Below are positions 1 through 61,735 of a stretch of 64,000 nucleotides of DNA, piece after piece. Source of the stretch: Haliotis cracherodii (taxonomy: Eukaryota). The translations under genes and the position numbers were made by a program. The stretch's first letter is position 1; the number at the start of each line of letters is the position of its first letter. The notes under the pieces are model-generated. The model saw nothing but the letters and a program-made list of their open reading frames with translations, did not search any database and was not told the DNA's origin. The DNA lies in the NCBI RefSeq assembly GCF_022045235.1, contig NW_027266275.1, forward strand, positions 80,166,001 to 80,230,000. Reading direction: 5' to 3'.

Positions 1-216
1 AACCTCTGTAGCTGTCTTTTCCTTAATTACTTACCACCAATTGAAAGCGGACTATGATTAAGGATTCCAAATCAAAGACAAAAGAATCTTATTCAGAATA
101 TTATGGTATGTTCAAGGAACCCTCTTTTTATTTCATTATAATATATATTTCAGCAATGAAGGCAATGTTTATTTTTTCTCGGGTTCGTGATTAGCTGATA
201 GTTTTAATCCATTTTT

Positions 217-600
217 GAATTCCAATAACACCAATAAGTAAGTAATAATTTGTAAAACATTCAGGGATGTGCCAATTATTTATTTAACAAAGAAGTCAAT
301 AATGTCCTTTCAGTGTTAACAATTTCATGTTGTTTCAAGATCACAGGGCCACAGAGCAATGATAATAATAATAAGGCAGGAGACATGCTAACATACTGAG
401 ACTGAGTGTGTTGTCTGACATGGCGACGTCTACATCGACGTTGTTGCACCAAGGCATGGCGGGACACTGATACACACTTAGTTGAGGAGGATTAAAAATA
501 CTTGATCTTTATGATGTTTTGATGATAGATAATCTCTTATCACGACATGTGTCATTACATTCTTTATCCTCATAAAACGGGAGAAAATGTTGCTGTGTTG
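217..600. promoter_or_regulatory. Distal moderately conserved non-coding region (about -1.6 to -1.2 kb from the ATG); present in every array unit
   Basis: Colinear short blocks shared with ~60195-60580: CAGGAGACATGCTAAC, TGTCTGACATG, CGGGACA.TGATA.ACACT, TTGATCTTT...TGTTTTGATGATAGA.AATCTC. Confidence 0.5.
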
Positions 601-902
601 ATCACTTTGGTTTCTTAACAATCTTGGTGAACTTAACTACTTGAAATGCATCCTTCAATTCCTCTTATGAATAGCTTTGGTGAGGAACTAACACATACAG
701 TGTATTACAGAAGGTAGCAACATGTAAACAGAGAGATAGCAATAATGGAACATTGTAGTTCAGAAATATGAAACTAATATCTTATATTTGGGTACTTTCT
801 ATATGCTTAACTTGATTGTTACATACTATGCGAATATGTGCTCCCAATAACAGCAGTGCAATGAAACCTTGCAATCAGCATTTAAGAATCGCTTTGATGA
901 AT

Positions 903-1092
903 ATTCACTGAGGCGTGTAATCGTTCACTCTAAAAGCTGACGAGGTGTTTTCTTAAAGGAAACTAGGAACTAGCTGAGATTAACGGGATGAGTGTGATCC
1001 GGGAGACAGGATCAGACAGTGATTGTTCGACAGTCAGATGAGACAGGGAGACGGGCTTGTTACTGTGGAGGAGCATGATAGCCGCTGTCTGG
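903..1092. promoter_or_regulatory. Conserved candidate enhancer with clustered Smad-type (AGAC/GTCT), Sox-type (ATTGTT) and bZIP half-site (TGACG) motifs; present in every array unit
   Basis: 1004-1069 matches 61124-61189 at 65/66 nt; AGAC at 1004, 1014, 1041, 1049; GTCT at 1087; ATTGTT at 1022; CTGACGAG at 937 also conserved. Confidence 0.7.
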
Positions 1093-1616
1093 GAACTGAA
1101 TAGTGAAAAGAGTATGTACCTGTAAAGATGAAGGCCATCTTACACTGACGAATTGTGAATATGCATACGCCGTGATTTAAAGAAGCATATACAGTTTCTG
1201 GGACTTGGCACCAATATATAAATATACCGAATATACATGTAAGATCAGAATTAGTTGTGCAATTTCATTGAATCAAGAAAGCGTAATTCAATCTGACAAC
1301 ATCGGATTCCTGTATATAGCTTATGCGTATATTAAAATAACAATGTTTAATGTCAGAGAATCTATATTTCATGCCTTAAGAAGATAACTTCCACATGTAC
1401 AGTAGTATATTACAGAATATTTTCATAAACACCTTGCTTGAAACATATGGTAATAAGATCTATGTAATTATTTTTTTCAAATTATTCGTTTGCAAAATAT
1501 ATTATCTGTCAAATCACAGCAACGCTTAAAATTATATCAATGTAGCAGATACGTGTTTATTTTACATACGATGCGTACAATTACACATAATACACGCGAC
1601 TACCATTTCTCTAAAG

Positions 1617-1745
1617 CAGATTATAAGCATTGCCTGAAGGAATATGAACACCTCGCCAACACCCGGCCATTGAATGACCACTCGTCTTGTATACACAAGT
1701 AGTTGGGTCTGGTATATAACGCTACACGGGAGCTATCACATGATC
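1617..1745 (+). promoter_or_regulatory. Core/proximal promoter with TATA box (TATATAA 1713-1719); present in every array unit
   Basis: GGTCTGGTATATAACGC and the upstream block CATTGCCTGAAGGAATATG.ACACCTCGCCAACACCCG.CCATT are conserved in the diverged paralog (61607-61735), with TATA exactly 90 bp before the ATG in both. Confidence 0.8.
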
Positions 1746-1802
1746 ACTTGCATTGCCACATCCTACACTTGCACACCAAAATATCTATCCAACTGTCTGA
1801 AA

Positions 1803-3236
1803 ATGTCGCAGTTTAAAATGGCAATTTTCTTTCTGATATGTGTCGGAAATGTTGGAGGACGAGGTATTGCTTTTCCCAAACAATTGCTAACCCAAGATGT
1901 TCGAGTCCTAACTGATACTTATGGGAATGGTGCACGACCTCTTGCAGATCTGTCCCCTATTGTTGGAAGGTTGAGTCATCCAGTTGATTATCAAAAGCCT
2001 TCAACACAATTCATGGTACAATTGTTTAACATTCTTCAAAAAGGGGCACCACTTGCAAGAGCGGCAGGCAGAAAGCTGAACACAGCTGATTTCAAGAAAG
2101 CAGACACCATCAGGAGCTTCACGGCTAAAGGTAATCTTTAACCTGGAGTCAGATCACATACGATTTTAATCATTAACAAACAAATATGAAAAAAGTAAGA
2201 AATTCAATATATCAAGGCCAGGGAATAAGCAGTCTCGATTGTCTGCCGAAACAATTGCAATGCGCATAAAATGCCAAATAGTGATGAAAATTAGATGAAT
2301 GGCTCGCAGACGTTAAGCATTCACTGCAAGAATATTCTTGATGTAAATGTTTTATTTGTACAACTTTGGTTTTCATGCAATGTATGTTTAATTCCAGACA
2401 TGACACAAAAGAATGTAAGAAAGAGAGTTGAGCTATCGTTCAAGATTCCTAGTCTACCTGAAAACGAACGTCTCCGATTAGCTGAGTTCCGGTGCAGACG
2501 CTCTGTATCTCCTTTAAAGAAGTACAGGGTCAAGGTCATCATTCTCAAGGGAGAGAATATCGCACGAAAAGCTAACATCAGGGTCAAACCTATTACACAG
2601 GGTGAATATTATGTATTTGACATCAGTCGAGCCATCAAAGCCTTCATCAACGGTTACCACGGTGACGCCACCATTCATGTGGAAATACCACGGACATTCT
2701 CCAGAATTCTTTTGAAAACAGCATCCGAAACTTATGGATACTTACTTGTATTTTATTTGGAAAATCGCCACTTTCTTCAAAACGTTTTGGAAACCTACAA
2801 AGTGGAAGAGCATTCCACTTTTGATGGATTAGGTAATATAGCATCACGCGCTAAAAGATCGGCACATGCCACAAGCAGACGTCGAGAACGCAAGAACAGA
2901 CGATGGAAGAAGTCCGGGAAGAAACAAGGCTGTCGTCTGTACGACTTTAACGTGGACTTCAAGACGATCGGCTGGGGACAGTGGATCATCCACCCTACAC
3001 GCTTCAACTCCAAATTCTGCCACGGAAACTGTCCCTCCCCCATCGACATCCGATTCAAACCCACCAATCACGCCATGTTGCAGTCACTCATGAGAAGCAA
3101 GCGCTCCAACGCTGCTCCCGACCTTTGTTGTGTCCCAACCAAACTGGAACCTCTCAGCATGATGTACGTGGAGGATGGCGAAGTTGTTGTACGTCATCAC
3201 GAGGACATGATCGCCTCTGAATGTGGATGTCGATGA
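1803..3236 (+). CDS. nodal: Nodal-like TGF-beta ligand precursor, array copy 1; join(1803..2130,2398..3236), 388 aa
   Basis: ATG 90 bp downstream of TATATAA; hydrophobic N-terminus MSQFKMAIFFLICVGNVGG; prodomain motif ADTIRSF; phase-1 intron AAAG|GTAATC...TTCCAG|AC (267 bp) keeps the frame; RAKR furin site at 2847-2858; 7-Cys mature domain with Nodal-type motifs VDF..IGWGQWII.P, PTNHA..QSL, CCVPTKL.PLSM.Y.E.GE.VVRHHEDMI..ECGCR. TGF-beta family membership is near certain; the Nodal subfamily call is by motif recognition. Confidence 0.88.
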
Positions 3237-3419
3237 CGTTGACGTCTCCCATGAACACCAATGGACTATGTCATGAATTCTGATCGTAATCAGCTGCCAA
3301 ACAACCAATCTGTGTCATGACACCTTGGCACGGCCAATTGTAACTGTGATATATAGATATACAATGGTGCTATTTTGTAGATACTGATTTGCTTCATGTA
3401 AAAGAAATGGATCGTTTGT

Positions 3420-3425
3420 AATAAA
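3420..3425 (+). terminator. Polyadenylation signal AATAAA of the array gene (repeated in each unit)
   Basis: First AATAAA after the stop (184 nt downstream), followed by T-rich sequence. Confidence 0.6.
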
Positions 3426-5991: not shown

Positions 5992-7425
5992 ATGTCGCAG
6001 TTTAAAATGGCAATTTTCTTTCTGATATGTGTCGGAAATGTTGGAGGACGAGGTATTGCTTTTCCCAAACAATTGCTAACCCAAGATGTTCGAGTCCTAA
6101 CTGATACTTATGGGAATGGTGCACGACCTCTTGCAGATCTGTCCCCTATTGTTGGAAGGTTGAGTCATCCAGTTGATTATCAAAAGCCTTCAACACAATT
6201 CATGGTACAATTGTTTAACATTCTTCAAAAAGGGGCACCACTTGCAAGAGCGGCAGGCAGAAAGCTGAACACAGCTGATTTCAAGAAAGCAGACACCATC
6301 AGGAGCTTCACGGCTAAAGGTAATCTTTAACCTGGAGTCAGATCACATACGATTTTAATCATTAACAAACAAATATGAAAAAAGTAAGAAATTCAATATA
6401 TCAAGGCCAGGGAATAAGCAGTCTCGATTGTCTGCCGAAACAATTGCAATGCGCATAAAATGCCAAATAGTGATGAAAATTAGATGAATGGCTCGCAGAC
6501 GTTAAGCATTCACTGCAAGAATATTCTTGATGTAAATGTTTTATTTGTACAACTTTGGTTTTCATGCAATGTATGTTTAATTCCAGACATGACACAAAAG
6601 AATGTAAGAAAGAGAGTTGAGCTATCGTTCAAGATTCCTAGTCTACCTGAAAACGAACGTCTCCGATTAGCTGAGTTCCGGTGCAGACGCTCTGTATCTC
6701 CTTTAAAGAAGTACAGGGTCAAGGTCATCATTCTCAAGGGAGAGAATATCGCACGAAAAGCTAACATCAGGGTCAAACCTATTACACAGGGTGAATATTA
6801 TGTATTTGACATCAGTCGAGCCATCAAAGCCTTCATCAACGGTTACCACGGTGACGCCACCATTCATGTGGAAATACCACGGACATTCTCCAGAATTCTT
6901 TTGAAAACAGCATCCGAAACTTATGGATACTTACTTGTATTTTATTTGGAAAATCGCCACTTTCTTCAAAACGTTTTGGAAACCTACAAAGTGGAAGAGC
7001 ATTCCACTTTTGATGGATTAGGTAATATAGCATCACGCGCTAAAAGATCGGCACATGCCACAAGCAGACGTCGAGAACGCAAGAACAGACGATGGAAGAA
7101 GTCAGGGAAGAAACAAGGCTGTCGTCTGTACGACTTTAACGTGGACTTCAAGACGATCGGCTGGGGACAGTGGATCATCCACCCTACACGCTTCAACTCC
7201 AAATTCTGCCACGGAAACTGTCCCTCCCCCATCGACATCCGATTCAAACCCACCAATCACGCCATGTTGCAGTCACTCATGAGAAGCAAGCGCTCCAACG
7301 CTGCTCCCGACCTTTGTTGTGTCCCAACCAAACTGGAACCTCTCAGCATGATGTACGTGGAGGATGGCGAAGTTGTTGTACGTCATCACGAGGACATGAT
7401 CGCCTCTGAATGTGGATGTCGATGA
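5992..7425 (+). CDS. nodal: Nodal-like precursor, array copy 2; join(5992..6319,6587..7425)
   Basis: Same exon/intron structure; protein identical to copy 1 (silent TCC>TCA). Confidence 0.88.
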
Positions 7426-10180: not shown

Positions 10181-11614
10181 ATGTCGCAGTTTAAAATGGC
10201 AATTTTCTTTCTGATATGTGTCGGAAATGTTGGAGGACGAGGTATTGCTTTTCCCAAACAATTGCTAACCCAAGATGTTCGAGTCCTAACTGATACTTAT
10301 GGGAATGGTGCACGACCTCTTGCAGATCTGTCCCCTATTGTTGGAAGGTTGAGTCATCCAGTTGATTATCAAAAGCCTTCAACACAATTCATGGTACAAT
10401 TGTTTAACATTCTTCAAAAAGGGGCACCACTTGCAAGAGCGGCAGGCAGAAAGCTGAACACAGCTGATTTCAAGAAAGCAGACACCATCAGGAGCTTCAC
10501 GGCTAAAGGTAATCTTTAACCTGGAGTCAGATCACATACGATTTTAATCATTAACAAACAAATATGAAAAAAGTAAGAAATTCAATATATCAAGGCCAGG
10601 GAATAAGCAGTCTCGATTGTCTGCCGAAACAATTGCAATGCGCATAAAATGCCAAATAGTGATGAAAATTAGATGAATGGCTCGCAGACGTTAAGCATTC
10701 ACTGCAAGAATATTCTTGATGTAAATGTTTTATTTGTACAACTTTGGTTTTCATGCAATGTATGTTTAATTCCAGACATGACACAAAAGAATGTAAGAAA
10801 GAGAGTTGAGCTATCGTTCAAGATTCCTAGTCTACCTGAAAACGAACGTCTCCGATTAGCTGAGTTCCGGTGCAGATGCTCTGTATCTCCTTTAAAGAAG
10901 TACAGGGTCAAGGTCATCATTCTCAAGGGAGAGAATATCGCACGAAAAGCTAACATCAGGGTCAAACCTATTACACAGGGTGAATATTATGTATTTGACA
11001 TCAGTCGAGCCATCAAAGCCTTCATCAACGGTTACCACGGTGACGCCACCATTCATGTGGAAATACCACGGACATTCTCCAGAATTCTTTTGAAAACAGC
11101 ATCCGAAACTTATGGATACTTACTTGTATTTTATTTGGAAAATCGCCACTTTCTTCAAAACGTTTTGGAAACCTACAAAGTGGAAGAGCATTCCACTTTT
11201 GATGGATTAGGTAATATAGCATCACGCGCTAAAAGATCGGCACATGCCACAAGCAGACGTCGAGAACGCAAGAACAGACGATGGAAGAAGTCCGGGAAGA
11301 AACAAGGCTGTCGTCTGTACGACTTTAACGTGGACTTCAAGACGATCGGCTGGGGACAGTGGATCATCCACCCTACACGCTTCAACTCCAAATTCTGCCA
11401 CGGAAACTGTCCCTCCCCCATCGACATCCGATTCAAACCCACCAATCACGCCATGTTGCAGTCACTCATGAGAAGCAAGCGCTCCAACGCTGCTCCCGAC
11501 CTTTGTTGTGTCCCAACCAAACTGGAACCTCTCAGCATGATGTACGTGGAGGATGGCGAAGTTGTTGTACGTCATCACGAGGACATGATCGCCTCTGAAT
11601 GTGGATGTCGATGA
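10181..11614 (+). CDS. nodal: Nodal-like precursor, array copy 3; join(10181..10508,10776..11614)
   Basis: Intact; one prodomain change RCRRS>RCRCS. Confidence 0.88.
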
Positions 11615-14369: not shown

Positions 14370-15803
14370 ATGTCGCAGTTTAAAATGGCAATTTTCTTTC
14401 TGATATGTGTCGGAAATGTTGGAGGACGAGGTATTGCTTTTCCCAAACAATTGCTAACCCAAGATGTTCGAGTCCTAACTGATACTTATGGGAATGGTGC
14501 ACGACCTCTTGCAGATCTGTCCCCTATTGTTGGAAGGTTGAGTCATCCAGTTGATTATCAAAAGCCTTCAACACAATTCATGGTACAATTGTTTAACATT
14601 CTTCAAAAAGGGGCACCACTTGCAAGAGCGGCAGGCAGAAAGCTGAACACAGCTGATTTCAAGAAAGCAGACACCATCAGGAGCTTCACGGCTAAAGGTA
14701 ATCTTTAACCTGGAGTCAGATCACATACGATTTTAATCATTAACAAACAAATATGAAAAAAGTAAGAAATTCAATATATCAAGGCCAGGGAATAAGCAGT
14801 CTCGATTGTCTGCCGAAACAATTGCAATGCGCATAAAATGCCAAATAGTGATGAAAATTAGATGAATGGCTCGCAGACGTTAAGCATTCACTGCAAGAAT
14901 ATTCTTGATGTAAATGTTTTATTTGTACAACTTTGGTTTTCATGCAATGTATGTTTAATTCCAGACATGACACAAAAGAATGTAAGAAAGAGAGTTGAGC
15001 TATCGTTCAAGATTCCTAGTCTACCTGAAAACGAACGTCTCCGATTAGCTGAGTTCCGGTGCAGACGCTCTGTATCTCCTTTAAAGAAGTACAGGGTCAA
15101 GGTCATCATTCTCAAGGGAGAGAATATCGCACGAAAAGCTAACATCAGGGTCAAACCTATTACACAGGGTGAATATTATGTATTTGACATCAGTCGAGCC
15201 ATCAAAGCCTTCATCAACGGTTACCACGGTGACGCCACCATTCATGTGGAAATACCACGGACATTCTCCAGAATTCTTTTGAAAACAGCATCCGAAACTT
15301 ATGGATACTTACTTGTATTTTATTTGGAAAATCGCCACTTTCTTCAAAACGTTTTGGAAACCTACAAAGTGGAAGAGCATTCCACTTTTGATGGATTAGG
15401 TAATATAGCATCACGCGCTAAAAGATCGGCACATGCCACAAGCAGACGTCGAGAACGCAAGAACAGACGATGGAAGAAGTCCGGGAAGAAACAAGGCTGT
15501 CGTCTGTACGACTTTAACGTGGACTTCAAGACGATCGGCTGGGGACAGTGGATCATCCACCCTACACGCTTCAACTCCAAATTCTGCCACGGAAACTGTC
15601 CCTCCCCCATCGACATCCGATTCAAACCCACCAATCACGCCATGTTGCAGTCACTCATGAGAAGCAAGCGCTCCAACGCTGCTCCCGACCTTTGTTGTGT
15701 CCCAACCAAACTGGAACCTCTCAGCATGATGTACGTGGAGGATGGCGAAGTTGTTGTACGTCATCACGAGGACATGATCGCCTCTGAATGTGGATGTCGA
15801 TGA
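14370..15803 (+). CDS. nodal: Nodal-like precursor, array copy 4; join(14370..14697,14965..15803)
   Basis: Intact; protein identical to copy 1. Confidence 0.88.
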
Positions 15804-18558: not shown

Positions 18559-19992
18559 ATGTCGCAGTTTAAAATGGCAATTTTCTTTCTGATATGTGTC
18601 GGAAATGTTGGAGGACGAGGTATTGCTTTTCCCAAACAATTGCTAACCCAAGATGTTCGAGTCCTAACTGATACTTATGGGAATGGTGCACGACCTCTTG
18701 CAGATCTGTCCCCTATTGTTGGAAGGTTGAGTCATCCAGTTGATTATCAAAAGCCTTCAACACAATTCATGGTACAATTGTTTAACATTCTTCAAAAAGG
18801 GGCACCACTTGCAAGAGCGGCAGGCAGAAAGCTGAACACAGCTGATTTCAAGAAAGCAGACACCATCAGGAGCTTCACGGCTAAAGGTAATCTTTAACCT
18901 GGAGTCAGATCACATACGATTTTAATCATTAACAAACAAATATGAAAAAAGTAAGAAATTCAATATATCAAGGCCAGGGAATAAGCAGTCTCGATTGTCT
19001 GCCGAAACAATTGCAATGCGCATAAAATGCCAAATAGTGATGGAAATTAGATGAATGGCTCGCAGACGTTAAGCATTCACTGCAAGAATATTCTTGATGT
19101 AAATGTTTTATTTGTACAACTTTGGTTTTCATGCAATGTATGTTTAATTCCAGACATGACACAAAAGAATGTAAGAAAGAGAGTTGAGCTATCGTTCAAG
19201 ATTCCTAGTCTACCTGAGAACGAACGTCTCCGATTAGCTGAGTTCCGGTGCAGACGCTCTGTATCTCCTTTAAAGAAGTACAGGGTCAAGGTCATCATTC
19301 TCAAGGGAGAGAATATCGCACGAAAAGCTAACATCAGGGTCAAACCTATTACACAGGGTGAATATTATGTATTTGACATCAGTCGAGCCATCAAAGCCTT
19401 CATCAACGGTTACCACGGTGACGCCACCATTCATGTGGAAATACCACGGACATTCTCCAGAATTCTTTTGAAAACAGCATCCGAAACTTATGGATACTTA
19501 CTTGTATTTTATTTGGAAAATCGCCACTTTCTTCAAAACGTTTTGGAAACCTACAAAGTGGAAGAGCATTCCACTTTTGATGGATTAGGTAATATAGCAT
19601 CACGCGCTAAAAGATCGGCACATGCCACAAGCAGACGTCGAGAACGCAAGAACAGACGATGGAAGAAGTCCGGGAAGAAACAAGGCTGTCGTCTGTACGA
19701 CTTTAACGTGGACTTCAAGACGATCGGCTGGGGACAGTGGATCATCCACCCTACACGCTTCAACTCCAAATTCTGCCACGGAAACTGTCCCTCCCCCATC
19801 GACATCCGATTCAAACCCACCAATCACGCCATGTTGCAGTCACTCATGAGAAGCAAGCGCTCCAACGCTGCTCCCGACCTTTGTTGTGTCCCAACCAAAC
19901 TGGAACCTCTCAGCATGATGTACGTGGAGGATGGCGAAGTTGTTGTACGTCATCACGAGGACATGATCGCCTCAGAATGTGGATGTCAATGA
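18559..19992 (+). CDS. nodal: Nodal-like precursor, array copy 5; join(18559..18886,19154..19992)
   Basis: Intact; C-terminal ECGCR>ECGCQ. Confidence 0.88.
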
Positions 19993-22747: not shown

Positions 22748-24181
22748 ATGTCGCAGTTTAAAATGGCAATTTTCTTTCTGATATGTGTCGGAAATGTTGG
22801 AGGACGAGGTATTGCTTTTCCCAAACAATTGCTAACCCAAGATGTTCGAGTCCTAACTGATACTTATGGGAATGGTGCACGACCTCTTGCAGATCTGTCC
22901 CCTATTGTTGGAAGGTTGAGTCATCCAGTTGATTATCAAAAGCCTTCAACACAATTCATGGTACAATTGTTTAACATTCTTCAAAAAGGGGCACCACTTG
23001 CAAGAGCGGCAGGCAGAAAGCTGAACACAGCTGATTTCAAGAAAGCAGACACCATCAGGAGCTTCACGGCTAAAGGTAATCTTTAACCTGGAGTCAGATC
23101 ACATACGATTTTAATCATTAACAAACAAATATGAAAAAAGTAAGAAATTCAATATATCAAGGCCAGGGAATAAGCAGTCTCGATTGTCTGCCGAAACAAT
23201 TGCAATGCGCATAAAATGCCAAATAGTGATGGAAATTAGATGAATGGCTCGCAGACGTTAAGCATTCACTGCAAGAATATTCTTGATGTAAATGTTTTAT
23301 TTGTACAACTTTGGTTTTCATGCAATGTATGTTTAATTCCAGACATGACACAAAAGAATGTAAGAAAGAGAGTTGAGCTATCGTTCAAGATTCCTAGTCT
23401 ACCTGAGAACGAACGTCTCCGATTAGCTGAGTTCCGGTGCAGACGCTCTGTATCTCCTTTAAAGAAGTACAGGGTCAAGGTCATCATTCTCAAGGGAGAG
23501 AATATCGCACGAAAAGCTAACATCAGGGTCAAACCTATTACACAGGGTGAATATTATGTATTTGACATCAGTCGAGCCATCAAAGCCTTCATCAACGGTT
23601 ACCACGGTGACGCCACCATTCATGTGGAAATACCACGGACATTCTCCAGAATTCTTTTGAAAACAGCATCCGAAACTTATGGATACTTACTTGTATTTTA
23701 TTTGGAAAATCGCCACTTTCTTCAAAACGTTTTGGAAACCTACAAAGTGGAAGAGCATTCCACTTTTGATGGATTAGGTAATATAGCATCACGCGCTAAA
23801 AGATCGGCACATGCCACAAGCAGACGTCGAGAACGCAAGAACAGACGATGGAAGAAGTCCGGGAAGAAACAAGGCTGTCGTCTGTACGACTTTAACGTGG
23901 ACTTCAAGACGATCGGCTGGGGACAGTGGATCATCCACCCTACACGCTTCAACTCCAAATTCTGCCACGGAAACTGTCCCTACCCCATCGACATCCGATT
24001 CAAACCCACCAATCACGCCATGTTGCAGTCACTCATGAGAAGCAAGCGCTCCAACGCTGCTCCCGACCTTTGTTGTGTCCCAACCAAACTGGAACCTCTC
24101 AGCATGATGTACGTGGAGGATGGCGAAGTTGTTGTACGTCATCACGAGGACATGATCGCCTCAGAATGTGGATGTCAATGA
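22748..24181 (+). CDS. nodal: Nodal-like precursor, array copy 6; join(22748..23075,23343..24181)
   Basis: Intact; CPSP>CPYP and ECGCR>ECGCQ. Confidence 0.88.
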
Positions 24182-35314: not shown

Positions 35315-36748
35315 ATGTCGCAGTTTAAAATGGCAATTTTCTTTCTGATATGTGTCGGAAATGTTGGAGGACGAGGTATTGCTTTTCCCAAACAATTGCT
35401 AACCCAAGATGTTCGAGTCCTAACTGATACTTATGGGAATGGTGCACGACCTCTTGCAGATCTGTCCCCTATTGTTGGAAGGTTGAGTCATCCAGTTGAT
35501 TATCAAAAGCCTTCAACACAATTCATGGTACAATTGTTTAACATTCTTCAAAAAGGGGCACCACTTGCAAGAGCGGCAGGCAGAAAGCTGAACACAGCTG
35601 ATTTCAAGAAAGCAGACACCATCAGGAGCTTCACGGCTAAAGGTAATCTTTAACCTGGAGTCAGATCACATACGATTTTAATCATTAACAAACAAATATG
35701 AAAAAAGTAAGAAATTCAATATATCAAGGCCAGGGAATAAGCAGTCTCGATTGTCTGCCGAAACAATTGCAATGCGCATAAAATGCCAAATAGTGATGGA
35801 AATTAGATGAATGGCTCGCAGACGTTAAGCATTCACTGCAAGAATATTCTTGATGTAAATGTTTTATTTGTACAACTTTGGTTTTCATGCAATGTATGTT
35901 TAATTCCAGACATGACACAAAAGAATGTAAGAAAGAGAGTTGAGCTATCGTTCAAGATTCCTAGTCTACCTGAGAACGAACGTCTCCGATTAGCTGAGTT
36001 CCGGTGCAGACGCTCTGTATCTCCTTTAAAGAAGTACAGGGTCAAGGTCATCATTCTCAAGGGAGAGAATATCGCACGAAAAGCTAACATCAGGGTCAAA
36101 CCTATTACACAGGGTGAATATTATGTATTTGACATCAGTCGAGCCATCAAAGCCTTCATCAACGGTTACCACGGTGACGCCACCATTCATGTGGAAATAC
36201 CACGGACATTCTCCAGAATTCTTTTGAAAACAGCATCCGAAACTTATGGATACTTACTTGTATTTTATTTGGAAAATCGCCACTTTCTTCAAAACGTTTT
36301 GGAAACCTACAAAGTGGAAGAGCATTCCACTTTTGATGGATTAGGTAATATAGCATCACGCGCTAAAAGATCGGCACACGCCACAAGCAGACGTCGAGAA
36401 CGCAAGAACAGACGATGGAAGAAGTCCGGGAAGAAACAAGGCTGTCGTCTGTACGACTTTAACGTGGACTTCAAGACGATCGGCTGGGGACAGTGGATCA
36501 TCCACCCTACACGCTTCAACTCCAAATTCTGCCACGGAAACTGTCCCTCCCCCATCGACATCCGATTCAAACCCACCAATCACGCCATGTTGCAGTCACT
36601 CATGAGAAGCAAGCGCTCCAACGCTGCTCCCGACCTTTGTTGTGTCCCAACCAAACTGGAACCTCTCAGCATGATGTACGTGGAGGATGGCGAAATTGTT
36701 GTACGTCATCACGAGGACATGATCGCCTCTGAATGTGGATGTCGATGA
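35315..36748 (+). CDS. nodal: Nodal-like precursor, array copy 9; join(35315..35642,35910..36748)
   Basis: Intact; GEVVV>GEIVV. Confidence 0.88.
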
Positions 36749-39361: not shown

Positions 39362-40797
39362 ATGTCGCAGTTTAAAATGGCAATTTTCTTTCTGATATGT
39401 GTCGGAAATGTTGGAGGACGAGGTATTGCTTTTCCCAAACAATTGCTAACCCAAGATGTTCGAGTCCTAACTGATACTTATGGGAATGGTGCACGACCTC
39501 TTGCAGATCTGTCCCCTATTGTTGGAAGGTTGAGTCATCCAGTTGATTATCAAAAGCCTTCAACACAATTCATGGTACAATTGTTTAACATTCTTCAAAA
39601 AGGGGCACCACTTGCAAGAGCGGCAGGCAGAAAGCTGAACACAGCTGATTTCAAGAAAGCAGACACCATCAGGAGCTTCACGGCTAAAGGTAATCTTTAA
39701 CCTGGAGTCAGATCACATACGATTTTAATCATTAACAAACAAATATGAAAAAAAAGTAAGAAATTCAATATATCAAGGCCAGGGAATAAGCAGTCTCGAT
39801 TGTCTGCCGAAACAATTGCAATGCGCATAAAATGCCAAATAGTGATGGAAATTAGATGAATGGCTCGCAGACGTTAAGCATTCACTGCAAGAATATTCTT
39901 GATGTAAATGTTTTATTTGTACAACTTTGGTTTTCATGCAATGTATGTTTAATTCCAGACATGACACAAAAGAATGTAAGAAAGAGAGTTGAGCTATCGT
40001 TCAAGATTCCTAGTCTACCTGAGAACGAACGTCTCCGATTAGCTGAGTTCCGGTGCAGACGCTTTGTATCTCCTTTAAAGAAGTACAGGGTCAAGGTCAT
40101 CATTCTCAAGGGAGAGAATATCGCACGAAAAGCTAACATCAGGGTCAAACCTATTACACAGGGTGAATATTATGTATTTGACATCAGTCGAGCCATCAAA
40201 GCCTTCATCAACGGTTACCACGGTGACGCCACCATTCATGTGGAAATACCACGGACATTCTCCAGAATTCTTTTGAAAACAGCATCCGAAACTTATGGAT
40301 ACTTACTTGTATTTTATTTGGAAAATCGCCACTTTCTTCAAAACGTTTTGGAAACCTACAAAGTGGAAGAGCATTCCACTTTTGATGGATTAGGTAATAT
40401 AGCATCACGCGCTAAAAGATCGGCACACGCCACAAGCAGACGTCGAGAACGCAAGAACAGACGATGGAAGAAGTCAGGGAAGAAACAAGGCTGTCGTCTG
40501 TACGACTTTAACGTGGACTTCAAGACGATCGGCTGGGGACAGTGGATCATCCACCCTACACGCTTCAACTCCAAATTCTGCCACGGAAACTGTCCCTCCC
40601 CCATCGACATCCGATTCAAACCCACCAATCACGCCATGTTGCAGTCACTCATGAGAAGCAAGCGCTCCAACGCTGCTCCCGACCTTTGTTGTGTCCCAAC
40701 CAAACTGGAACCTCTCAGCATGATGTACGTGGAGGATGGCGAAGTTGTTGTACGTCATCACGAGGACATGATCGCCTCTGAATGTGGATGTCGATGA
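39362..40797 (+). CDS. nodal: Nodal-like precursor, array copy 10; join(39362..39689,39959..40797)
   Basis: Intact; RRSVS>RRFVS; intron 2 bp longer (A-run expansion). Confidence 0.88.
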
Positions 40798-43529: not shown

Positions 43530-44963
43530 ATGTCGCAGTTTAAAATGGCAATTTTCTTTCTGATATGTGTCGGAAATGTTGGAGGACGAGGTATTGCTTT
43601 TCCCAAACAATTGCTAACCCAAGATGTTCGAGTCCTAACTGATACTTATGGGAATGGTGCACGACCTCTTGCAGATCTGTCCCCTATTGTTGGAAGGTTG
43701 AGTCATCCAGTTGATTATCAAAAGCCTTCAACACAATTCATGGTACAATTGTTTAACATTCTTCAAAAAGGGGCACCACTTGCAAGAGCGGCAGGCAGAA
43801 AGCTGAACACAGCTGATTTCAAGAAAGCAGACACCATCAGGAGCTTCACGGCTAAAGGTAATCTTTAACCTGGAGTCAGATCACATACGATTTTAATCAT
43901 TAACAAACAAATATGAAAAAAGTAAGAAATTCAATATATCAAGGCCAGGGAATAAGCAGTCTCGATTGTCTGCCGAAACAATTGCAATGCGCATAAAATG
44001 CCAAATAGTGATGGAAATTAGATGAATGGCTCGCAGACGTTAAGCATTCACTGCAAGAATATTCTTGATGTAAATGTTTTATTTGTACAACTTTGGTTTT
44101 CATGCAATGTATGTTTAATTCCAGACATGACACAAAAGAATGTAAGAAAGAGAGTTGAGCTATCGTTCAAGATTCCTAGTCTACCTGAAAACGAACGTCT
44201 CCGATTAGCTGAGTTCCGGTGCAGACGCTCTGTATCTCCTTTAAAGAAGTACAGGGTCAAGGTCATCATTCTCAAGGGAGAGAATATCGCACGAAAAGCT
44301 AACATCAGGGTCAAACCTATTACACAGGGTGAATATTATGTATTTGACATCAGTCGAGCCATCAAAGCCTTCATCAACGGTTACCACGGTGACGCCACCA
44401 TTCATGTGGAAATACCACGGACATTCTCCAGAATTCTTTTGAAAACAGCATCCGAAACTTATGGATACTTACTTGTATTTTATTTGGAAAATCGCCACTT
44501 TCTTCAAAACGTTTTGGAAACCTACAAAGTGGAAGAGCATTCCACTTTTGATGGATTAGGTAATATAGCATCACGCGCTAAAAGATCGGCACACGCCACA
44601 AGCAGACGTCGAGAACGCAAGAACAGACGATGGAAGAAGTCCGGGAAGAAACAAGGCTGTCGTCTGTACGACTTTAACGTGGACTTCAAGACGATCGGCT
44701 GGGGACAGTGGATCATCCACCCTACACGCTTCAACTCCAAATTCTGCCACGGAAACTGTCCCTCCCCCATCGACATCCGATTCAAACCCACCAATCACGC
44801 CATGTTGCAGTCACTCATGAGAAGCAAGCGCTCCAACGCTGCTCCCGACCTTTGTTGTGTCCCAACCAAACTGGAACCTCTCAGCATGATGTACGTGGAG
44901 GATGGCGAAGTTGTTGTACGTCATCACGAGGACATGATCGCCTCTGAATGTGGATGTCGATGA
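43530..44963 (+). CDS. nodal: Nodal-like precursor, array copy 11; join(43530..43857,44125..44963)
   Basis: Intact; protein identical to copy 1. Confidence 0.88.
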
Positions 44964-47695: not shown

Positions 47696-49129
47696 ATGTC
47701 GCAGTTTAAAATGGCAATTTTCTTTCTGATATGTGTCGGAAATGTTGGAGGACGAGGTATTGCTTTTCCCAAACAATTGCTAACCCAAGATGTTCGAGTC
47801 CTAACTGATACTTATGGGAATGGTGCACGACCTCTTGCAGATCTGTCCCCTATTGTTGGAAGGTTGAGTCATCCAGTTGATTATCAAAAGCCTTCAACAC
47901 AATTCATGGTACAATTGTTTAACATTCTTCAAAAAGGGGCACCACTTGCAAGAGCGGCAGGCAGAAAGCTGAACACAGCTGATTTCAAGAAAGCAGACAC
48001 CATCAGGAGCTTCACGGCTAAAGGTAATCTTTAACCTGGAGTCAGATCACATACGATTTTAATCATTAACAAACAAATATGAAAAAAGTAAGAAATTCAA
48101 TATATCAAGGCCAGGGAATAAGCAGTCTCGATTGTCTGCCGAAACAATTGCAATGCGCATAAAATGCCAAATAGTGATGGAAATTAGATGAATGGCTCGC
48201 AGACGTTAAGCATTCACTGCAAGAATATTCTTGATGTAAATGTTTTATTTGTACAACTTTGGTTTTCATGCAATGTATGTTTAATTCCAGACATGACACA
48301 AAAGAATGTAAGAAAGAGAGTTGAGCTATCGTTCAAGATTCCTAGTCTACCTGAGAACGAACGTCTCCGATTAGCTGAGTTCCGGTGCAGACGCTCTGTA
48401 TCTCCTTTAAAGAAGTACAGGGTCAAGGTCATCATTCTCAAGGGAGAGAATATCGCACGAAAAGCTAACATCAGGGTCAAACCTATTACACAGGGTGAAT
48501 ATTATGTATTTGACATCAGTCGAGCCATCAAAGCCTTCATCAACGGTTACCACGGTGACGCCACCATTCATGTGGAAATACCACGGACATTCTCCAGAAT
48601 TCTTTTGAAAACAGCATCCGAAACTTATGGATACTTACTTGTATTTTATTTGGAAAATCGCCACTTTCTTCAAAACGTTTTGGAAACCTACAAAGTGGAA
48701 GAGCATTCCACTTTTGATGGATTAGGTAATATAGCATCACGCGCTAAAAGATCGGCACACGCCACAAGCAGACGTCGAGAACGCAAGAACAGACGATGGA
48801 AGAAGTCCGGGAAGAAACAAGGCTGTCGTCTGTACGACTTTAACGTGGACTTCAAGACGATCGGCTGGGGACAGTGGATCATCCACCCTACACGCTTCAA
48901 CTCCAAATTCTGCCACGGAAACTGTCCCTCCCCCATCGACATCCGATTCAAACCCACCAATCACGCCATGTTGCAGTCACTCATGAGAAGCAAGCGCTCC
49001 AACGCTGCTCCCGACCTTTGTTGTGTCCCAACCAAACTGGAACCTCTCAGCATGATGTACGTGGAGGATGGCGAAGTTGTTGTACGTCATCACGAGGACA
49101 TGATCGCCTCTGAATGTGGATGTCGATGA
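47696..49129 (+). CDS. nodal: Nodal-like precursor, array copy 12; join(47696..48023,48291..49129)
   Basis: Intact; protein identical to copy 1. Confidence 0.88.
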
Positions 49130-51861: not shown

Positions 51862-53295
51862 ATGTCGCAGTTTAAAATGGCAATTTTCTTTCTGATATGT
51901 GTCGGAAATGTTGGAGGACGAGGTATTGCTTTTCCCAAACAATTGCTAACCCAAGATGTTCGAGTCCTAACTGATACTTATGGGAATGGTGCACGACCTC
52001 TTGCAGATCTGTCCCCTATTGTTGGAAGGTTGAGTCATCCAGTTGATTATCAAAAGCCTTCAACACAATTCATGGTACAATTGTTTAACATTCTTCAAAA
52101 AGGGGCACCACTTGCAAGAGCGGCAGGCAGAAAGCTGAACACAGCTGATTTCAAGAAAGCAGACACCATCAGGAGCTTCACGGCTAAAGGTAATCTTTAA
52201 CCTGGAGTCAGATCACATACGATTTTAATCATTAACAAACAAATATGAAAAAAGTAAGAAATTCAATATATCAAGGCCAGGGAATAAGCAGTCTCGATTG
52301 TCTGCCGAAACAATTGCAATGCGCATAAAATGCCAAATAGTGATGGAAATTAGATGAATGGCTCGCAGACGTTAAGCATTCACTGCAAGAATATTCTTGA
52401 TGTAAATGTTTTATTTGTACAACTTTGGTTTTCATGCAATGTATGTTTAATTCCAGACATGACACAAAAGAATGTAAGAAAGAGAGTTGAGCTATCGTTC
52501 AAGATTCCTAGTCTACCTGAGAACGAACGTCTCCGATTAGCTGAGTTCCGGTGCAGACGCTCTGTATCTCCTTTAAAGAAGTACAGGGTCAAGGTCATCA
52601 TTCTCAAGGGAGAGAATATCGCACGAAAAGCTAACATCAGGGTCAAACCTATTACACAGGGTGAATATTATGTATTTGACATCAGTCGAGCCATCAAAGC
52701 CTTCATCAACGGTTACCACGGTGACGCCACCATTCATGTGGAAATACCACGGACATTCTCCAGAATTCTTTTGAAAACAGCATCCGAAACTTATGGATAC
52801 TTACTTGTATTTTATTTGGAAAATCGCCACTTTCTTCAAAACGTTTTGGAAACCTACAAAGTGGAAGAGCATTCCACTTTTGATGGATTAGGTAATATAG
52901 CATCACGCGCTAAAAGATCGGCACATGCCACAAGCAGACGTCGAGAACGCAAGAACAGACGATGGAAGAAGTCAGGGAAGAAACAAGGCTGTCGTCTGTA
53001 CGACTTTAACGTGGACTTCAAGACGATCGGCTGGGGACAGTGGATCATCCACCCTACACGCTTCAACTCCAAATTCTGCCACGGAAACTGTCCCTCCCCC
53101 ATCGACATCCGATTCAAACCCACCAATCACGCCATGTTGCAGTCACTCATGAGAAGCAAGCGCTCCAACGCTGCTCCCGACCTTTGTTGTGTCCCAACCA
53201 AACTGGAACCTCTCAGCATGATGTACGTGGAGGATGGCGAAGTTGTTGTACGTCATCACGAGGACATGATCGCCTCTGAATGTGGATGTCGATGA
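51862..53295 (+). CDS. nodal: Nodal-like precursor, array copy 13; join(51862..52189,52457..53295)
   Basis: Intact; protein identical to copy 1. Confidence 0.88.
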
Positions 53296-55908
53296 CGTTG
53301 ACGTCTCCCATGAACACCAATGGACTATGTCATGAATTCTGATCGTAATCAGCTGCCAAACAACCAATCTGTGTCATGACACCTTGGCACGGCCAATTGT
53401 AACTGTGATATATAGATATACAATGGTGCTATTTTGTAGATACTGATTTGCTTCATGTAAAAGAAATGGATCGTTTGTAATAAATGTTACACTGTACCAA
53501 ACTCTCTTTCTTGAATCATCGTAATATTATTTCTTTAGCGCTACACAGAACAATTTATATTCCAATATGACACATCCACCTGTCAGTCCAAGGAGGTTAC
53601 TCTTTTATAAACAATTAGAAAATACATACTCGTACAACTTTCGATTGCACTTCACCTTCCATCGGTCATACGTTACCAAGGATAGTTAGTTTGTGCTTGC
53701 ATGTCACCTGAAATTACCTTTTCAATGCAATACATGGAATGCATACGAATTCTCTTATTGACACTTAAAATAGGTGTGATAAATAGGAAGAGCGCACTCC
53801 TCATTTTTATCATGAGAAAACACTCTTGAAGTGTATCATGATAACCTGATTAGCACAAATAGTTGCATGCCTTTGACACAAAGGAGATTAACAAAGAGGC
53901 CACCAGTGAAAGTGACATGGCTGCAGCAAGCGAAATAAAAAACCTTAACGTATGTTGACAAGCATAAATTAAAACCCTTTCTTTCCGGATGGTGCCATTC
54001 CTTGTAAAAAACGTCCGGAAAGACGAAATATATATGGATACGGCGAAAACTTTGTGTTTTCATATATACATTCCAAACAAGACTGCATTATTTAACTGGA
54101 GTGGCTACAAGTCATACAATGTTTTCGAAACCTCTGTAGCTGTCTTTTCCTTAATTACTTACCACCAATTGAAAGTGGACTATGATTAAGGATTCCAAAT
54201 CAAAGACAAAAGAATCTTATTCAGAATATTATGGTATGTTCAAGGAACCCTCTTTTTATTTCATTATAATATATATTTCGGCAATGATGGCAATGTTTAT
54301 TTTTTAGTTTTAATCCATTTTTGAATTCCAATAACGCCAATAAGTAAGTAATAATTTGTAAAACATTCAGGGATGTACCAATTATTTATTTAACAAAGAA
54401 GTCAATAATGTCCTTTCAGTGTTAACAATTTCATGTTGTTTCAAGATCACAGGGCCACAGAGCAATGATAATAATAATAAGGCAGGAGACATGCTAACAT
54501 ACTGAGACTGAGTGTGTTGTCTGACATGGCGACGTCTACATCGACGTTGTTGCACCAAGGCATGGCGGGACACTGATACACACTTAGTTGAGGAGGATTA
54601 AAAATACTTGATCTTTATGATGTTTTGATGATAGATAATCTCTTATCACGACATGTGTCATTACATTCTTTATCCTCATAAAACGGGAGAAAATGTTGCT
54701 GTGTTGATCACTTTGGTTTCTTAACAATCTTGGTGAACTTAACTACTTGAAATGCATCCTTCAATTCCTCTTATGAATAGCTTTGGTGAGGAACTAACAC
54801 ATACAGTGTATTACAGAAGGTAGCAACATGTAAACAGAGAGATAGCAATAATGGAACATTGTAGTTCAGAAATATGAAACTAATATCTTATATTTGGGTA
54901 CTTTCTATATGCTTAACTTGATTGTTACATACTATGCGAATATGTGCACCCAATAACAGCAGTGCAATGAAACCTTGCAATCAGCATTTAAGAATCGCTT
55001 TGATGAATATTCACTGAGGCGTGTAATCGTTCACTCTAAAAGCTGACGAGGTGTTTTCTTAAAGGAAACTAGGAACTAGCTGAGATTAACGGGATGAGTG
55101 TGATCCGGGAGACAGGATCAGACAGTGATTGTTCGACAGTCAGATGAGACAGGGAGACGGGCTTGTTACTGTGGAGGAGCATGATAGCCGCTGTCTGGGA
55201 ACTGAATAGTGAAAAGAGTATGTACCTGTAAAGATGAAGGCCATCTTACACTGACGAATTGTGAATATGCATACGCCGTGATTTAAAGAAGCATATACAG
55301 TTTCTGGGACTTGGCACCAATATATAAATATACCGAATATACATGTAAGATCAGAATTAGTTGTGCAATTTCATTGAATCAAGAAAGCGTAATTCAATCT
55401 GACAACATCGGATTCCTGTATATAGCTTATGCGTATATTAAAATAACAATGTTTAATGTCAGAGAATCTATATTTCATGCCTTAAGAAGATAACTTCCAC
55501 ATGTACAGTAGTATATTACAGAATATTTTCATAAACACCTTGCTTGAAACATATGGTAATAAGATCTATGTAATTATTTTTTTCAAATTATTCGTTTGCA
55601 AAATATATTATCTGTCAAATCACAGCAAGGCTTAAAATTATATCAATGTAGCAGATACGTGTTTATTTTACATACGATGCGTACAATTACACATAATACA
55701 CGCGACTACCATTTCTCTAAAGCAGATTATAAGCATTGCCTGAAGGAATATGAACACCTCGCCAACACCCGGCCATTGAATGACCACTCGTCTTGTATAC
55801 ACAAGTAGTTGGGTCTGGTATATAACGCTACACGGGAGCTATCACATGATCACTTGCATTGCTACATCCTACGCTTGCACACCAAAATATTTATCCAACT
55901 GTCTGAAA

Positions 55909-57342
55909 ATGTCGCAGTTTAAAATGGCAATTTTCTTTCTGATATGTGTCGGAAATGTTGGAGGACGAGGTATTGCTTTTCCCAAACAATTGCTAACCCA
56001 AGATGTTCGAGTCCTAACTGATACTTATGGGAATGGTGCACGACCTCTTGCAGATCTGTCCCCTATTGTTGGAAGGTTGAGTCATCCAGTTGATTATCAA
56101 AAGCCTTCAACACAATTCATGGTACAATTGTTTAACATTCTTCAAAAAGGGGCACCACTTGCAAGAGCGGCAGGCAGAAAGCTGAACACAGCTGATTTCA
56201 AGAAAGCAGACACCATCAGGAGCTTCAAGGCTAAAGGTAATCTTTAACCTGGAGTCAGATCACATACGATTTTAATCATTAACAAACAAATATGAAAAAA
56301 GTAAGAAATTCAATATATCAAGGCCAGGGAATAAACAGTCTCGATTGTCTGCCGAAACAATTGCAATGCGCATAAAATGCCAAATAGTGATGGAAATTAG
56401 ATGAATGGCTCGCAGACGTTAAGCATTCACTGCAAGAATATTCTTGATGTAAATGTTTTATTTGTACAGCTTTGGTTTTCATGCAATGTATGTTTAATTC
56501 CAGACATGACACAAAAGAATGTAAGAAAGAGAGTTGAGCTATCGTTCAAGATTCCTAGTCTACCTGAGAAAGAACGTCTCCGATTAGCTGAGTTCCGGTG
56601 CAGACGCTCTGTATCTCCTTTAAAGAAGTACAGGGTCAAGGTCATCATTCTCAAGGGAGAGAATATCGCACGAAAAGCTAACATCAGGGTCAAACCTATT
56701 ACACAGGGTGAATATTATGTATTTGACATCAGTCGAGCCATCAAAGCCTTCATCAACGGTTACCACGGTGACGCCACCATTCATGTGGAAATACCACGGA
56801 CATTCTCCAGAATTCTTTTGAAAACAGCATCCGAAACTTATGGATACTTACTTGTATTTTATTTGGAAAATCGCCACTTTCTTCAAAACGTTTTGGAAAC
56901 CTACAAAGTGGAAGAGCATTCCACTTTTGATGGATTAGGTAATATAGCATCACGCGCTAAAAGATCGGCACATGCCACAAACAGACGTCGAGAACGCAAG
57001 AACAGACGATGGAAGAAGTCAGGGAAGAAACAAGGCTGTCGTCTGTACGACTTTAACGTGGACTTCAAGACGATCGGCTGGGGACAGTGGATCATCCACC
57101 CTACACGCTTCAACTCCAAATTCTGCCACGGAAACTGTCCCTCCCCCATCGACATCCGATTCAAACCCACCAATCACGCCATGTTGCAGTCACTCATGAG
57201 AAGCAAGCGCTCCAACGCTGCTCCCGACCTTTGTTGTGTCCCAACCAAACTGGAACCTCTCAGCATGATGTACGTGGAAGATGGCGAAGTTGTTGTACGT
57301 CATCACGAGGACATGATCGCCTCTGAATGTGGATGTCGTTGA
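55909..57342 (+). CDS. nodal: Nodal-like precursor, array copy 14 (edge copy); join(55909..56236,56504..57342)
   Basis: Intact; three private changes SFTA>SFKA, PENE>PEKE, ATSR>ATNR. Confidence 0.88.
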
Positions 57343-58466
57343 CGATGACGTCTCTCACGAACACCAATGGACTATGTCATGAATTCTGATCGTAATCAGC
57401 TGCCAAACAACCAATCTGTGTCATGACACCTTGGCACGGCCAATTGTAACTGTGATATATAGATATACAATGGTGCTATTTTGTAGATACTGATTTGCTT
57501 CATGTAAAAGAAATGGATCGTTTGTAATAAATGTTACACTGTACCAAACTCTCTTTCTTGAATCATCGTAATATTATTTATTTAGCGCTACACAGAACAA
57601 TTTATATTCCAATATGACACATCCAACTAGTCAGTCCAAGGAGGTTACTCTTTTATAAACAATTAGAAAATACATACTCGTACAACTTTCGATTGCACTT
57701 CACCTTCCATCGGTCATACGTTACCAAGGATAGTTAGTTTGTGCTTGCATGTCACCTGAAATTACCTTTTCAATGCAATACATGGAATGCATACGAATTC
57801 TCTTATTGACACTTAAAATAGGTGTGATAAATAGAAAGAGCGCACTCCTCATTTTTATCATGAGAAAACACTCTTGAAGTGTATCATGATAACCTGATTA
57901 GCACAAGTAGTTGCATGCCTTTGACACAAAGGAGATTAACAAAGAGGCCACCAGTGAAAGTGACATGGCTGCAGCAAGCGAAATAAAACCTTAACGTATG
58001 TTGACAAGCATAAATTGATTTTCACACGCCATATCCTAACCATGTTTTCTATATGCGTCAACGAATGTGGTGTCAGCGACATTCGGCAGAATTAATCAAC
58101 GATCAATCATTGTTGGCAGTAAAATTGTGAAGAGTGAAACCCTTTCTTTCCGGATGGTGCCATTCCTTGTAAAAAGCGTCCGGAAAGACGAATTATATAT
58201 GGATACGGCGAAAACTTTGCATTTGTACCCTCTTTTGTATTTCATTATAATATATATTTCGGCAATGAAGGCATTGTTTTTTCTTTCTTGGGTTAGTGAA
58301 TAGCTGATAGTTTTAATCCCTTTTGGAATTCCAATAACGCCAATAAGTAAGTAATAATTTGTAAAACATTCTTGGATGTGCCAATTATTTATTTAACAAA
58401 GAAGTCAATAAAGTCCTTTCAGTTTTAGCAAGTTTATATTCTTGAGGAGTATACATATACATGTAA

Positions 58467-61018: not shown

Positions 61019-61213
61019 ATTCACTGTGGCGTGTAATGGGTTACTCTTTAACCTGACGAGTTGTTTTCTTAAACTAATGACAACAGTAATAAGCTTAGAT
61101 TAGCGCAATGAGAGTGATCCTGAAGACAGGATCAGACAGTGATTGTTCGACAGTCAGATGAGACAGGGAGACAGGCTTGTTACTGTGGAATGGGGATGAT
61201 CGCCCCTGTCTGG
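61019..61213. promoter_or_regulatory. Same candidate enhancer upstream of the diverged paralog
   Basis: Homolog of 903-1092, retaining all four AGAC motifs, ATTGTT, CTGACGAG and CTGTCTGG. Confidence 0.7.
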
Positions 61214-61606: not shown

Positions 61607-61735
61607 CAGATTATAATCATTGCCTGAAGGAATATGGACACCTCGCCAACACCCGACCATTATGTTACCACTTGTCTTGTTTACACAAGTAGTAGGGTCT
61701 GGTATATAACGCCACACTGAAGCTATCACATCATC
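61607..61735 (+). promoter_or_regulatory. Core/proximal promoter of the diverged paralog (TATATAA 61703-61709)
   Basis: Aligns with 1617-1745, while the sequence just upstream aligns poorly. Confidence 0.8.

Follow-up and report, generated by a model that had tools for sequence, protein, structure and literature searches.

In snails, coiling and torsion are set by Nodal, a dose-sensitive signal. Most animals have one or a few copies of its gene, and outside frogs the usual assumption is one or two. The locus described here raises the question of why an abalone would carry many near-identical nodal genes head to tail, and whether that arrangement is real. The stretch analysed, referred to below as the window, comprises 64,000 nucleotides of Haliotis cracherodii (contig NW_027266275.1, positions 80,166,001 to 80,230,000), and our view of the locus took in a further 40 kb upstream and 60 kb downstream. 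We are highly confident of the structural part of the answer, which is a real, concertedly evolving Nodal array. The best explanation of the whole, in which this structure is joined by analogy to a role in transcript dosage, could as easily prove wrong as right.

A tandem array of intact nodal genes

A head-to-tail array of a compact two-exon gene, here called nodal A, runs on the forward strand from position 1 to 58226, and each of its 14 units (4047-4189 bp) holds an intact copy. The 20-mers between position 1 and about 58,200 mostly occur in 12-15 copies, and the dominant period is 4189 bp. In every unit the coding sequence (CDS) is 1167 nt long, divided between exons of 328 and 839 nt by a GT-AG intron, and reads through 388 amino acids to a single terminal stop; the intron measures 267 nt (269 in unit 10). 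In all 14 units the ATG is preceded at 90 nt by a TATA box, and the stop is followed at 184 nt by an AATAAA signal (positions 1713 and 3420 for A1). The copies encode 8 distinct proteins from 12 distinct CDSs. A preliminary description of this DNA had listed 14 complete copies with both exons, splice sites, TATA box and polyadenylation signal, had found no stop or frameshift in them, and had assigned one and the same protein to copies 1, 2, 4, 11, 12 and 13; all of this was borne out.

The boundaries of the array required some correction. The copies had been counted as "at least 14" in an array already running at the first base, but it starts no more than about 350 bp ahead of the window, with unit-like DNA of 93% identity, and there are exactly 14 A copies. 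The 40 kb upstream of the window held no further nodal copy, and genome-wide DNA and Pfam searches returned the same 14 (best 40 candidates scored in each). The span that had been given, up to 58440, holds for the A copies but passes over a fifteenth intact nodal gene in the window, B1. The complete locus consists of the 14 A genes, three B genes in the same direction and one inverted C gene, making 18 nodal genes within 85 kb. All 18 have open frames and share the position and phase of their intron. Intron size differs between the types (267 nt in A, about 144 nt in B and 2645 nt in C), as does the span from ATG to stop (1.43, 1.30 and 3.82 kb, respectively).

The A array is real as a tandem structure. 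No two A units are identical, and the longest exact repeat, at 3712 bp, is shorter than one unit. The further apart two units lie in the array, the more they differ (rho 0.78, p 1e-4 over units 1-13). Head-to-tail A-unit junctions were also present in contigs from both of the DNA-type sequencing runs of related species (2/2), and one of these contained the B junction as well. A wholly artefactual array with one or two true copies is very unlikely, to the point that we give it almost no weight.

The array units are homogenised, with neighbours most alike and the edge copy least alike. Over their whole 4.2 kb, units 1-13 differ pairwise by 2-16 substitutions (99.6-99.95% identity, mean divergence 0.26%), whereas unit 14 is the most diverged and differs from the others by 26-34. 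A 119-bp spacer deletion in unit 9 (37423 region) recurs in the non-adjacent unit 13, and unit 1 has several variants in common with units 11-14; both are signs of exchange between distant units. A mobile-element origin of the A unit was ruled out, as its 2.75-kb spacer matches this locus only (19/19 candidates scored). The spacer is free of dispersed repeats, and the A intron carries a piece of one, about 100 bp long.

The proteins are Nodal by sequence

In a mature-domain tree of 50 rows, the A, B and C proteins join Lottia and four vertebrate nodals with support of 99/99, to the exclusion of nine other TGF-beta ligands of the same genome. These ligands served as outgroups without tool-assigned names, and three split-exon loci (L036, L038 and L040, probably two genes) were left out. 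Within this group the mollusc nodals form a clade (99/92), as do the Haliotis nodals (97/94), and A and B together (100/99) are sister to C. The best database matches of A are Haliotis "nodal-like" proteins and Lottia nodal, and its best match among solved structures is a Nodal/BMP2 chimera. The B- and C-type proteins matching the locus carry the label Haliotis cracherodii at NCBI. By sequence, then, the A, B and C proteins are Nodal, and the mature-domain phylogeny that the preliminary description had proposed as a check places them where it had expected. The GDF6, BMP4 or derriere labels that some database entries carry are ruled out by the same tree.

The layout of the A protein agrees with this assignment. 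Seven conserved cysteines (288, 317, 321, 353, 354, 385 and 387) mark a C-terminal cystine knot, a furin site, RAKR, occupies residues 260-263, and a hydrophobic stretch from residue 6 (mean hydropathy 3.2 in a simple window) is predicted to be a signal peptide. The PF00019 domain scored above its cut-off in all 18 genes of the locus. N-glycosylation sequons number none in A, one in B and two in C.

Public models of the A genes, in this species and in H. rufescens, are 278 amino acids long, start in exon 2 and therefore lack the signal peptide; two are named GDF6-A-like. Exon 1 (1803-2130 and its equivalents) appears to have been missed in these models, and scant RNA support in adult tissues may be the cause.

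Concerted evolution and selection within Haliotis

Multi-copy nodal was found in 4/4 Haliotis species with annotated proteins, each with one C gene. Against the 14 A and 3 B of this genome, annotated proteins give at least 3 A and 3 B in H. rufescens, at least 5 copies on one 94-kb contig in H. rubra, and at least 2 in H. asinina; these counts are lower bounds because identical proteins collapse. In a tree of the last 280 residues, built by a quick method with SH-aLRT support only, A-type copies from the four species fall into species-specific groups, with support of 98 for H. rufescens, 100 for H. asinina and 85 for H. rubra. Such grouping is expected under concerted evolution or repeated turnover. 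The array had earlier been likened to ribosomal DNA (rDNA), and the likeness holds in that copies are homogenised within species, spacers included.

The C gene has behaved differently. The C proteins of the four species form one cluster at 90% identity, and A/B have accumulated 2-3 times more unique changes than C (e.g., 40 versus 17 against Lottia, p 0.002). As far as the sequences tell, nodal split early in Haliotis into a slow, single-copy C lineage, inverted and with a long intron, and a faster, compact A/B lineage. In the cystine knot, the ratio of nonsynonymous to synonymous substitution rates (dN/dS) is 0.18 between A and B and 0.08 between A and C, so the knot has been under long-term purifying selection.

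Conserved upstream elements and clues to expression

The presence of conserved elements upstream of each copy, also noted in the preliminary description, was substantiated: three conserved blocks occur in every unit and recur in B, and the proximal promoter is common also to C. Block 2 contains a 49-bp core that is exactly identical in 14/14 A units and B1, although A and B have a synonymous divergence (dS) of 0.32; another possible cause of this identity is conversion between the two types. Block 2 has four AGAC motifs in a stretch of 60 bp (p 0.046, uncorrected, among many tests). These motifs would suit Smad feedback, although the enrichment is marginal. Scans with motifs for FoxH1, TCF, Pitx and GC-rich Smad sites revealed no enrichment in any of five upstream regions. 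A second, diverged copy of block 2 accompanies B3 (C12:80236532-80236734, L045; C12 denotes the sequence that carries the locus).

None of the runs recorded as RNA contained the array stretch. A run that is probably RNA from a related species (X12) gave contigs of depth 2.6-6 over A exon 2 and the 3' untranslated region (UTR). One contig of 151 letters in this run begins at 56502, just two letters ahead of exon 2; its remaining 59 letters account for the depth of the exon 1 bin exactly. This contig fits a spliced exon 1-exon 2 transcript, the splice joint being deduced from depth. Another X12 contig falls on non-coding upstream DNA, so carry-over of DNA is possible.

Copy number in the array

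The number of copies is less firmly established than the structure. In the related species, contig depth on A relative to spacer was about 5-7 in one run (X10) and 13-16 in the other (X11), by hand arithmetic and with the caution that contig depth is not copy number. Depth on A relative to B was about 2 in both, which would correspond to about 5-7 A copies if B is 3, under the same caution. Raw reads of the same species (X18) gave an A:B ratio of 2.5 (bin bootstrap 1.3-6.4), compared with 4.7 expected from the assembly; this ratio excludes one A bin and those B bins that contain dispersed repeats. Only 4 of 5387 X18 reads aligned whole; with depths near 1.0 on A, 0.39 on B and 0 on spacer, the run is too thin to separate 7 A copies from 14. 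Read depth, which had been suggested as a check on the array, leaves the count of 14 without confirmation, the relatives looking nearer to about 5-7.

One explanation of the lower ratios is that the array is real but that its 14 units join parts of two haplotypes, with about 6-9 copies per chromosome. Besides the ratios themselves, a 22-bp indel that sets units 1-9 apart from units 10-14, with the switch of type falling within unit 9, is what such a join might leave behind. However, the absence of identical units and of exact repeats as long as a unit argues against inflation, variant blocks overlap gradually along the array, the raw-read interval takes in the expected 4.7, one relative reaches 13-16 against single-copy spacer, and contig depth is in any case a poor stand-in for copy number. 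We consider inflation unlikely. Fourteen is either the true number for the species or the animal or, with a rather small chance, the product of joined haplotypes; this bears on the count only and is compatible with each of the functional readings considered below.

A dosage role and its rivals

An early-embryo dosage role for the array is plausible by its likeness to Xenopus nodal3/nodal5, and the reasoning is by analogy: with the earliest frog genes, with the single-cell onset of nodal in Crepidula and with the blastula peak of nodal in scallops. The relevant passages on Xenopus describe nodal3 and nodal5 as tandemly multiplied and clustered with single-copy paralogs, their exact copy number being uncertain (PMC12344233), and the earliest zygotic genes of Xenopus, nodal5/6 among them, as short, intron-poor and clustered (in the part of 10.1101/488056 that treats them). 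In Crepidula, expression of the asymmetric paralog begins in just one cell when the embryo has 40-50 cells, and the other paralog is symmetric, according to the expression passages of PMC9907556. Scallop nodal peaks at the blastula and is about absent in adults, as the corresponding section of PMC10763453 reports.

In the mechanism that we propose, the array would grow, shrink and homogenise through unequal crossing-over and gene conversion, and selection for transcript dosage would keep it multi-copy. With many short transcription units, enough secreted Nodal could be produced by one or a few blastomeres during fast cleavage or blastula stages. The product would follow the route known for the family, with removal of a signal peptide, furin cleavage and formation of a disulfide-linked dimer, and then act on Smad2/3 and Pitx; the Nodal family is characterised by signalling via type II and ALK4/5/7-type receptors and Smad2/3 to Pitx and, in snail embryos, by early one-sided expression. 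The C gene would keep a later or more conventional role. Indeed, this conserved single-copy paralog, which the preliminary description overlooked, may perform the classical left-right function instead of the array.

Several results weigh against a dosage role. Within the array, 10 nonsynonymous and 6 synonymous variants give a dN/dS of about 0.48 (p 0.13), so that coding constraint is not significant on these few changes, and exon 2 has no fewer variable sites per kb (16.7) than the spacer (9.4 upstream, 16.2 downstream). Between A and B, constraint on the prodomain is relaxed (dN/dS 0.57). Copy number varies widely among Haliotis annotations, from 2 to 14, and Lottia, Aplysia, Biomphalaria and scallops apparently have one nodal each. 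The enrichment of Smad motifs is marginal and uncorrected, with AGAC/CAGAC counts reaching only p 0.02-0.05 in some upstream regions. The EGF-CFC co-receptor has one match in the genome (150/195 candidates scored) and is thus not amplified. In Crepidula, extra Nodal mRNA abolishes asymmetry dose-dependently, and the authors remark that low endogenous levels may suffice (passages of PMC9907556 on overexpression). The injections were made into zygotes, and that mRNA was therefore not restricted to one side (same passages).

In a rival reading, copy number would simply turn over neutrally, with one or two A/B copies needed and others coming and going via unequal crossing-over in a recombination-prone region; the locus sits about 2.1 Mb from the end of an 82-Mb sequence. 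The copies would then be intact only because the array is young, and its low mean divergence, the within-array dN/dS, which does not differ from neutral, the variation between species and the apparent single-copy state of other molluscs all point this way. Intact frames were indeed seen in 14/14 copies, but as a sign of selection they are weak: a neutral array at 0.26% divergence would show no stop and no frameshift with a chance of about 0.03-0.10 (a two-term product, by hand). On the other hand, the multi-copy state persists in 4/4 Haliotis species across deep splits, none of the 18 locus genes is broken even though the older B set is included, two separate arrays (A and B) adjoin, and Patella and a chiton have expanded nodal independently. 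We regard neutral turnover as possible but, on balance, somewhat unlikely. A different reading starts from the protein: if the receptor-binding surface of A/B has changed, extra copies might offset a weaker or longer-range ligand, or A/B might have taken on a new role (e.g., in the shell field or mantle) while C remains the classical left-right Nodal. The excess of unique changes in A/B over C is in its favour, as are K310T, L365M and Y369D, which every Haliotis A/B protein in the comparison carries and whose positions molluscs otherwise conserve (residue 310 is K in 15/15 other mollusc nodals). M365 aligns with Leu90 of BMP-2, which belongs to the type II receptor pocket in the structural description consulted (PMC1802081), and the division of the Crepidula paralogs into asymmetric and symmetric offers a precedent (PMC9907556, expression passages). 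However, the rate excess lies mostly in the prodomain (p below 0.05 in 15/16 whole-protein tests but in only 2/16 for the knot alone), L365M is conservative and occurs also in the single-copy nodal of Biomphalaria, and all seven cysteines and the furin site are kept. Compensation or new function therefore seems to us improbable.

Comparison with known systems

The parallel with Xenopus nodal3/nodal5, drawn already in the preliminary description, is structurally apt: in both cases a tandem multi-copy nodal stands beside a single-copy paralog, and the abalone A and B genes are likewise short and intron-poor. The origins are independent, however, as frog nodal falls outside the mollusc clade and A/B are nested among Haliotis nodals. 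Early expression is shown for the frog cluster; for the abalone array it is a prediction of the dosage reading. Xnr3 is reported to lack one cysteine, whereas the abalone proteins keep all seven.

Closer relatives provide other comparisons. Lineage-specific nodal duplication in snails is represented by Crepidula nodalA/nodalB and by Patella vulgata, the two paralogs being published for each genus (PMC9907556, in its account of paralogs). These are two divergent paralogs, compared with the homogenised 14 + 3 + 1 of the abalone, and the Patella genes form a clade of their own (100/99) and so are not orthologous to abalone A/B. Lottia gigantea nodal (ACB42423) shares the mollusc nodal clade and the prepro layout, with 50% identity over exon 2. 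Lottia and the other apparently single-copy molluscs have one database entry per species, and further copies are possible; their conservative counterpart in abalone is C, whereas A/B are derived. As for rDNA and histone arrays, the abalone locus resembles them in its head-to-tail units homogenised together with their spacers, its escaping edge copy and its clustering by species. It differs in having about 14 copies rather than tens to hundreds, in encoding a signalling ligand, and in that coding DNA within the array, on few changes, appears no more conserved than spacer.

Three nodal-type proteins are on record in databases for each of Patella vulgata, P. caerulea and the chiton Liolophura; Physella, Nucella and Babylonia have two apiece. 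The Patella (P0009, P0010, P0083-P0086) and Liolophura (P0026, P0111, P0112) sets form independent clades. The three Liolophura proteins lie on contigs of one length, as do the two of Physella (P0028, P0096).

The literature covered on mollusc and abalone nodal arrays, mostly titles and abstract openings outside subscription papers, includes no description of such an array, and a prior mention is possible. In the available text of a 2026 H. iris genome paper (PMC13544226), the word "nodal" occurs twice, at least once in a reference, and it is absent from two of the supplements; the relevant passages of a hemichordate genome paper have no word on nodal duplication. The H. iris paper also describes a Haliotis discus embryo series of 14 stages. 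The earlier claim that the abalone case is unique thus stands in so far as the array is apparently undescribed, but it was overstated, given the published paralogs of Crepidula and Patella and the two or three proteins of other molluscs in databases. What the abalone has is apparently an undescribed, concertedly evolving Nodal array in an 18-gene locus, convergent in form with the frog clusters.

A stronger version of the dosage reading would be that abalones independently evolved the frog's solution, a homogenised array of a compact, fast-evolving nodal paralog for a burst of Nodal from a single early blastomere, with a slightly altered receptor surface and with C acting later. We put this forward tentatively, by analogy, and consider it more probably wrong than right in this full form. 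If it were true, copy number, which ranges from 2 to 14 among annotated species, would act as a natural dial on left-right signalling in a snail of strong asymmetry. The Patella and chiton expansions would then reflect this pressure again in other molluscs that spawn freely and cleave fast, a life history to which such expansions may be linked.

As the 18-gene locus with its homogenised 14-copy array shows, amplification of a core patterning ligand is possible in a protostome. The locus provides variants that tell copies apart, and copy number is likely to vary naturally, in an animal that is farmed and can be spawned; such a system is suited to testing whether asymmetry depends on Nodal dose and which paralog is responsible for it. 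There is also a practical warning, in that abalone nodal probes, primers and knock-downs will mix 17-18 genes, and that public A models lack exon 1 and sometimes bear GDF6-like names.

Features of the locus and its surroundings

Coordinates of nodal genes and associated elements. Positions are in window numbering; B2, B3 and C lie beyond the window.
Feature	Position	Strand	Unit start, unit length	Remarks
Upstream block 1, unit 1	189..604	+		69% identical to B genes; present in every unit
Upstream block 2, unit 1	793..1108	+		49-bp core at 1004-1052
Proximal promoter and 5' UTR, unit 1	1557..1802	+		81% to B; 74% over 170 bp to inverted C
nodal A1	1803..3236	+	1, 4189 bp	388 aa; exon 1 1803-2130, intron 2131-2397, exon 2 2398-3236
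nodal A2	5992..7425	+	4190, 4189 bp	protein = A1
nodal A3	10181..11614	+	8379, 4189 bp	R144C
nodal A4	14370..15803	+	12568, 4189 bp	CDS = A1
nodal A5	18559..19992	+	16757, 4189 bp	R388Q
nodal A6	22748..24181	+	20946, 4189 bp	S323Y, R388Q
nodal A7	26937..28370	+	25135, 4189 bp	L50Q, R375H
nodal A8	31126..32559	+	29324, 4189 bp	CDS = A7
nodal A9	35315..36748	+	33513, 4069 bp	V372I; 119-bp spacer deletion in unit
nodal A10	39362..40797	+	37582, 4168 bp	S145F; first unit with 22-bp upstream deletion
nodal A11	43530..44963	+	41750, 4166 bp	protein = A1
nodal A12	47696..49129	+	45916, 4166 bp	protein = A1
nodal A13	51862..53295	+	50082, 4047 bp	protein = A1; 119-bp spacer deletion
nodal A14	55909..57342	+	54129, ~4100 bp	edge copy; T107K, N132K, S269N
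Right array edge, truncated unit-start remnant	58227..58443	+		unit positions 119-334; 91% identical
B unit 1	59329..63639	+		~4.3 kb period, three repeats in genome
nodal B1	61793..63091	+		384 aa, intact, 72% identical to A1; exon 1 61793-62120, 144-nt intron, exon 2 62265-63091
Start of B unit 2	63640..64000	+		
nodal B2	66111-67409	same direction as A		
nodal B3	71306-72603	same direction as A		
nodal C	84341-80524	inverted		2645-nt intron

The sequence that carries the nodal locus has three more TGF-beta ligand loci, at 53.8, 75.8 and 76.05 Mb. DAN-family genes, considered as pathway partners that might be co-amplified, gave four dispersed matches. The nodal and eif4ebp genes are linked in vertebrates; here eIF4E-BP is on the same sequence but 76 Mb distant.

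Short, high-copy dispersed repeats, SINE- or MITE-like, occur in the window at 59623-59698, at 58460-58630, at about 2200-2300 (in the intron) and near 63500, and the piece at 59623-59698 is matched by thousands of reads and contigs. Directly downstream of B3 is a retroelement-like fragment, reverse transcriptase/GIY-YIG-like by eye. About 5 kb upstream of the array, on the minus strand, a LINE-like element has an open frame of 988 codons (C12:80157921-80160884, L041); copies elsewhere in the genome are 95-100% identical to it, and it has therefore probably been active recently. A short-period minisatellite block of about 5 kb also lies upstream of the array (C12:80150100-80155600, L042), and another is found near 80265700-80268100.

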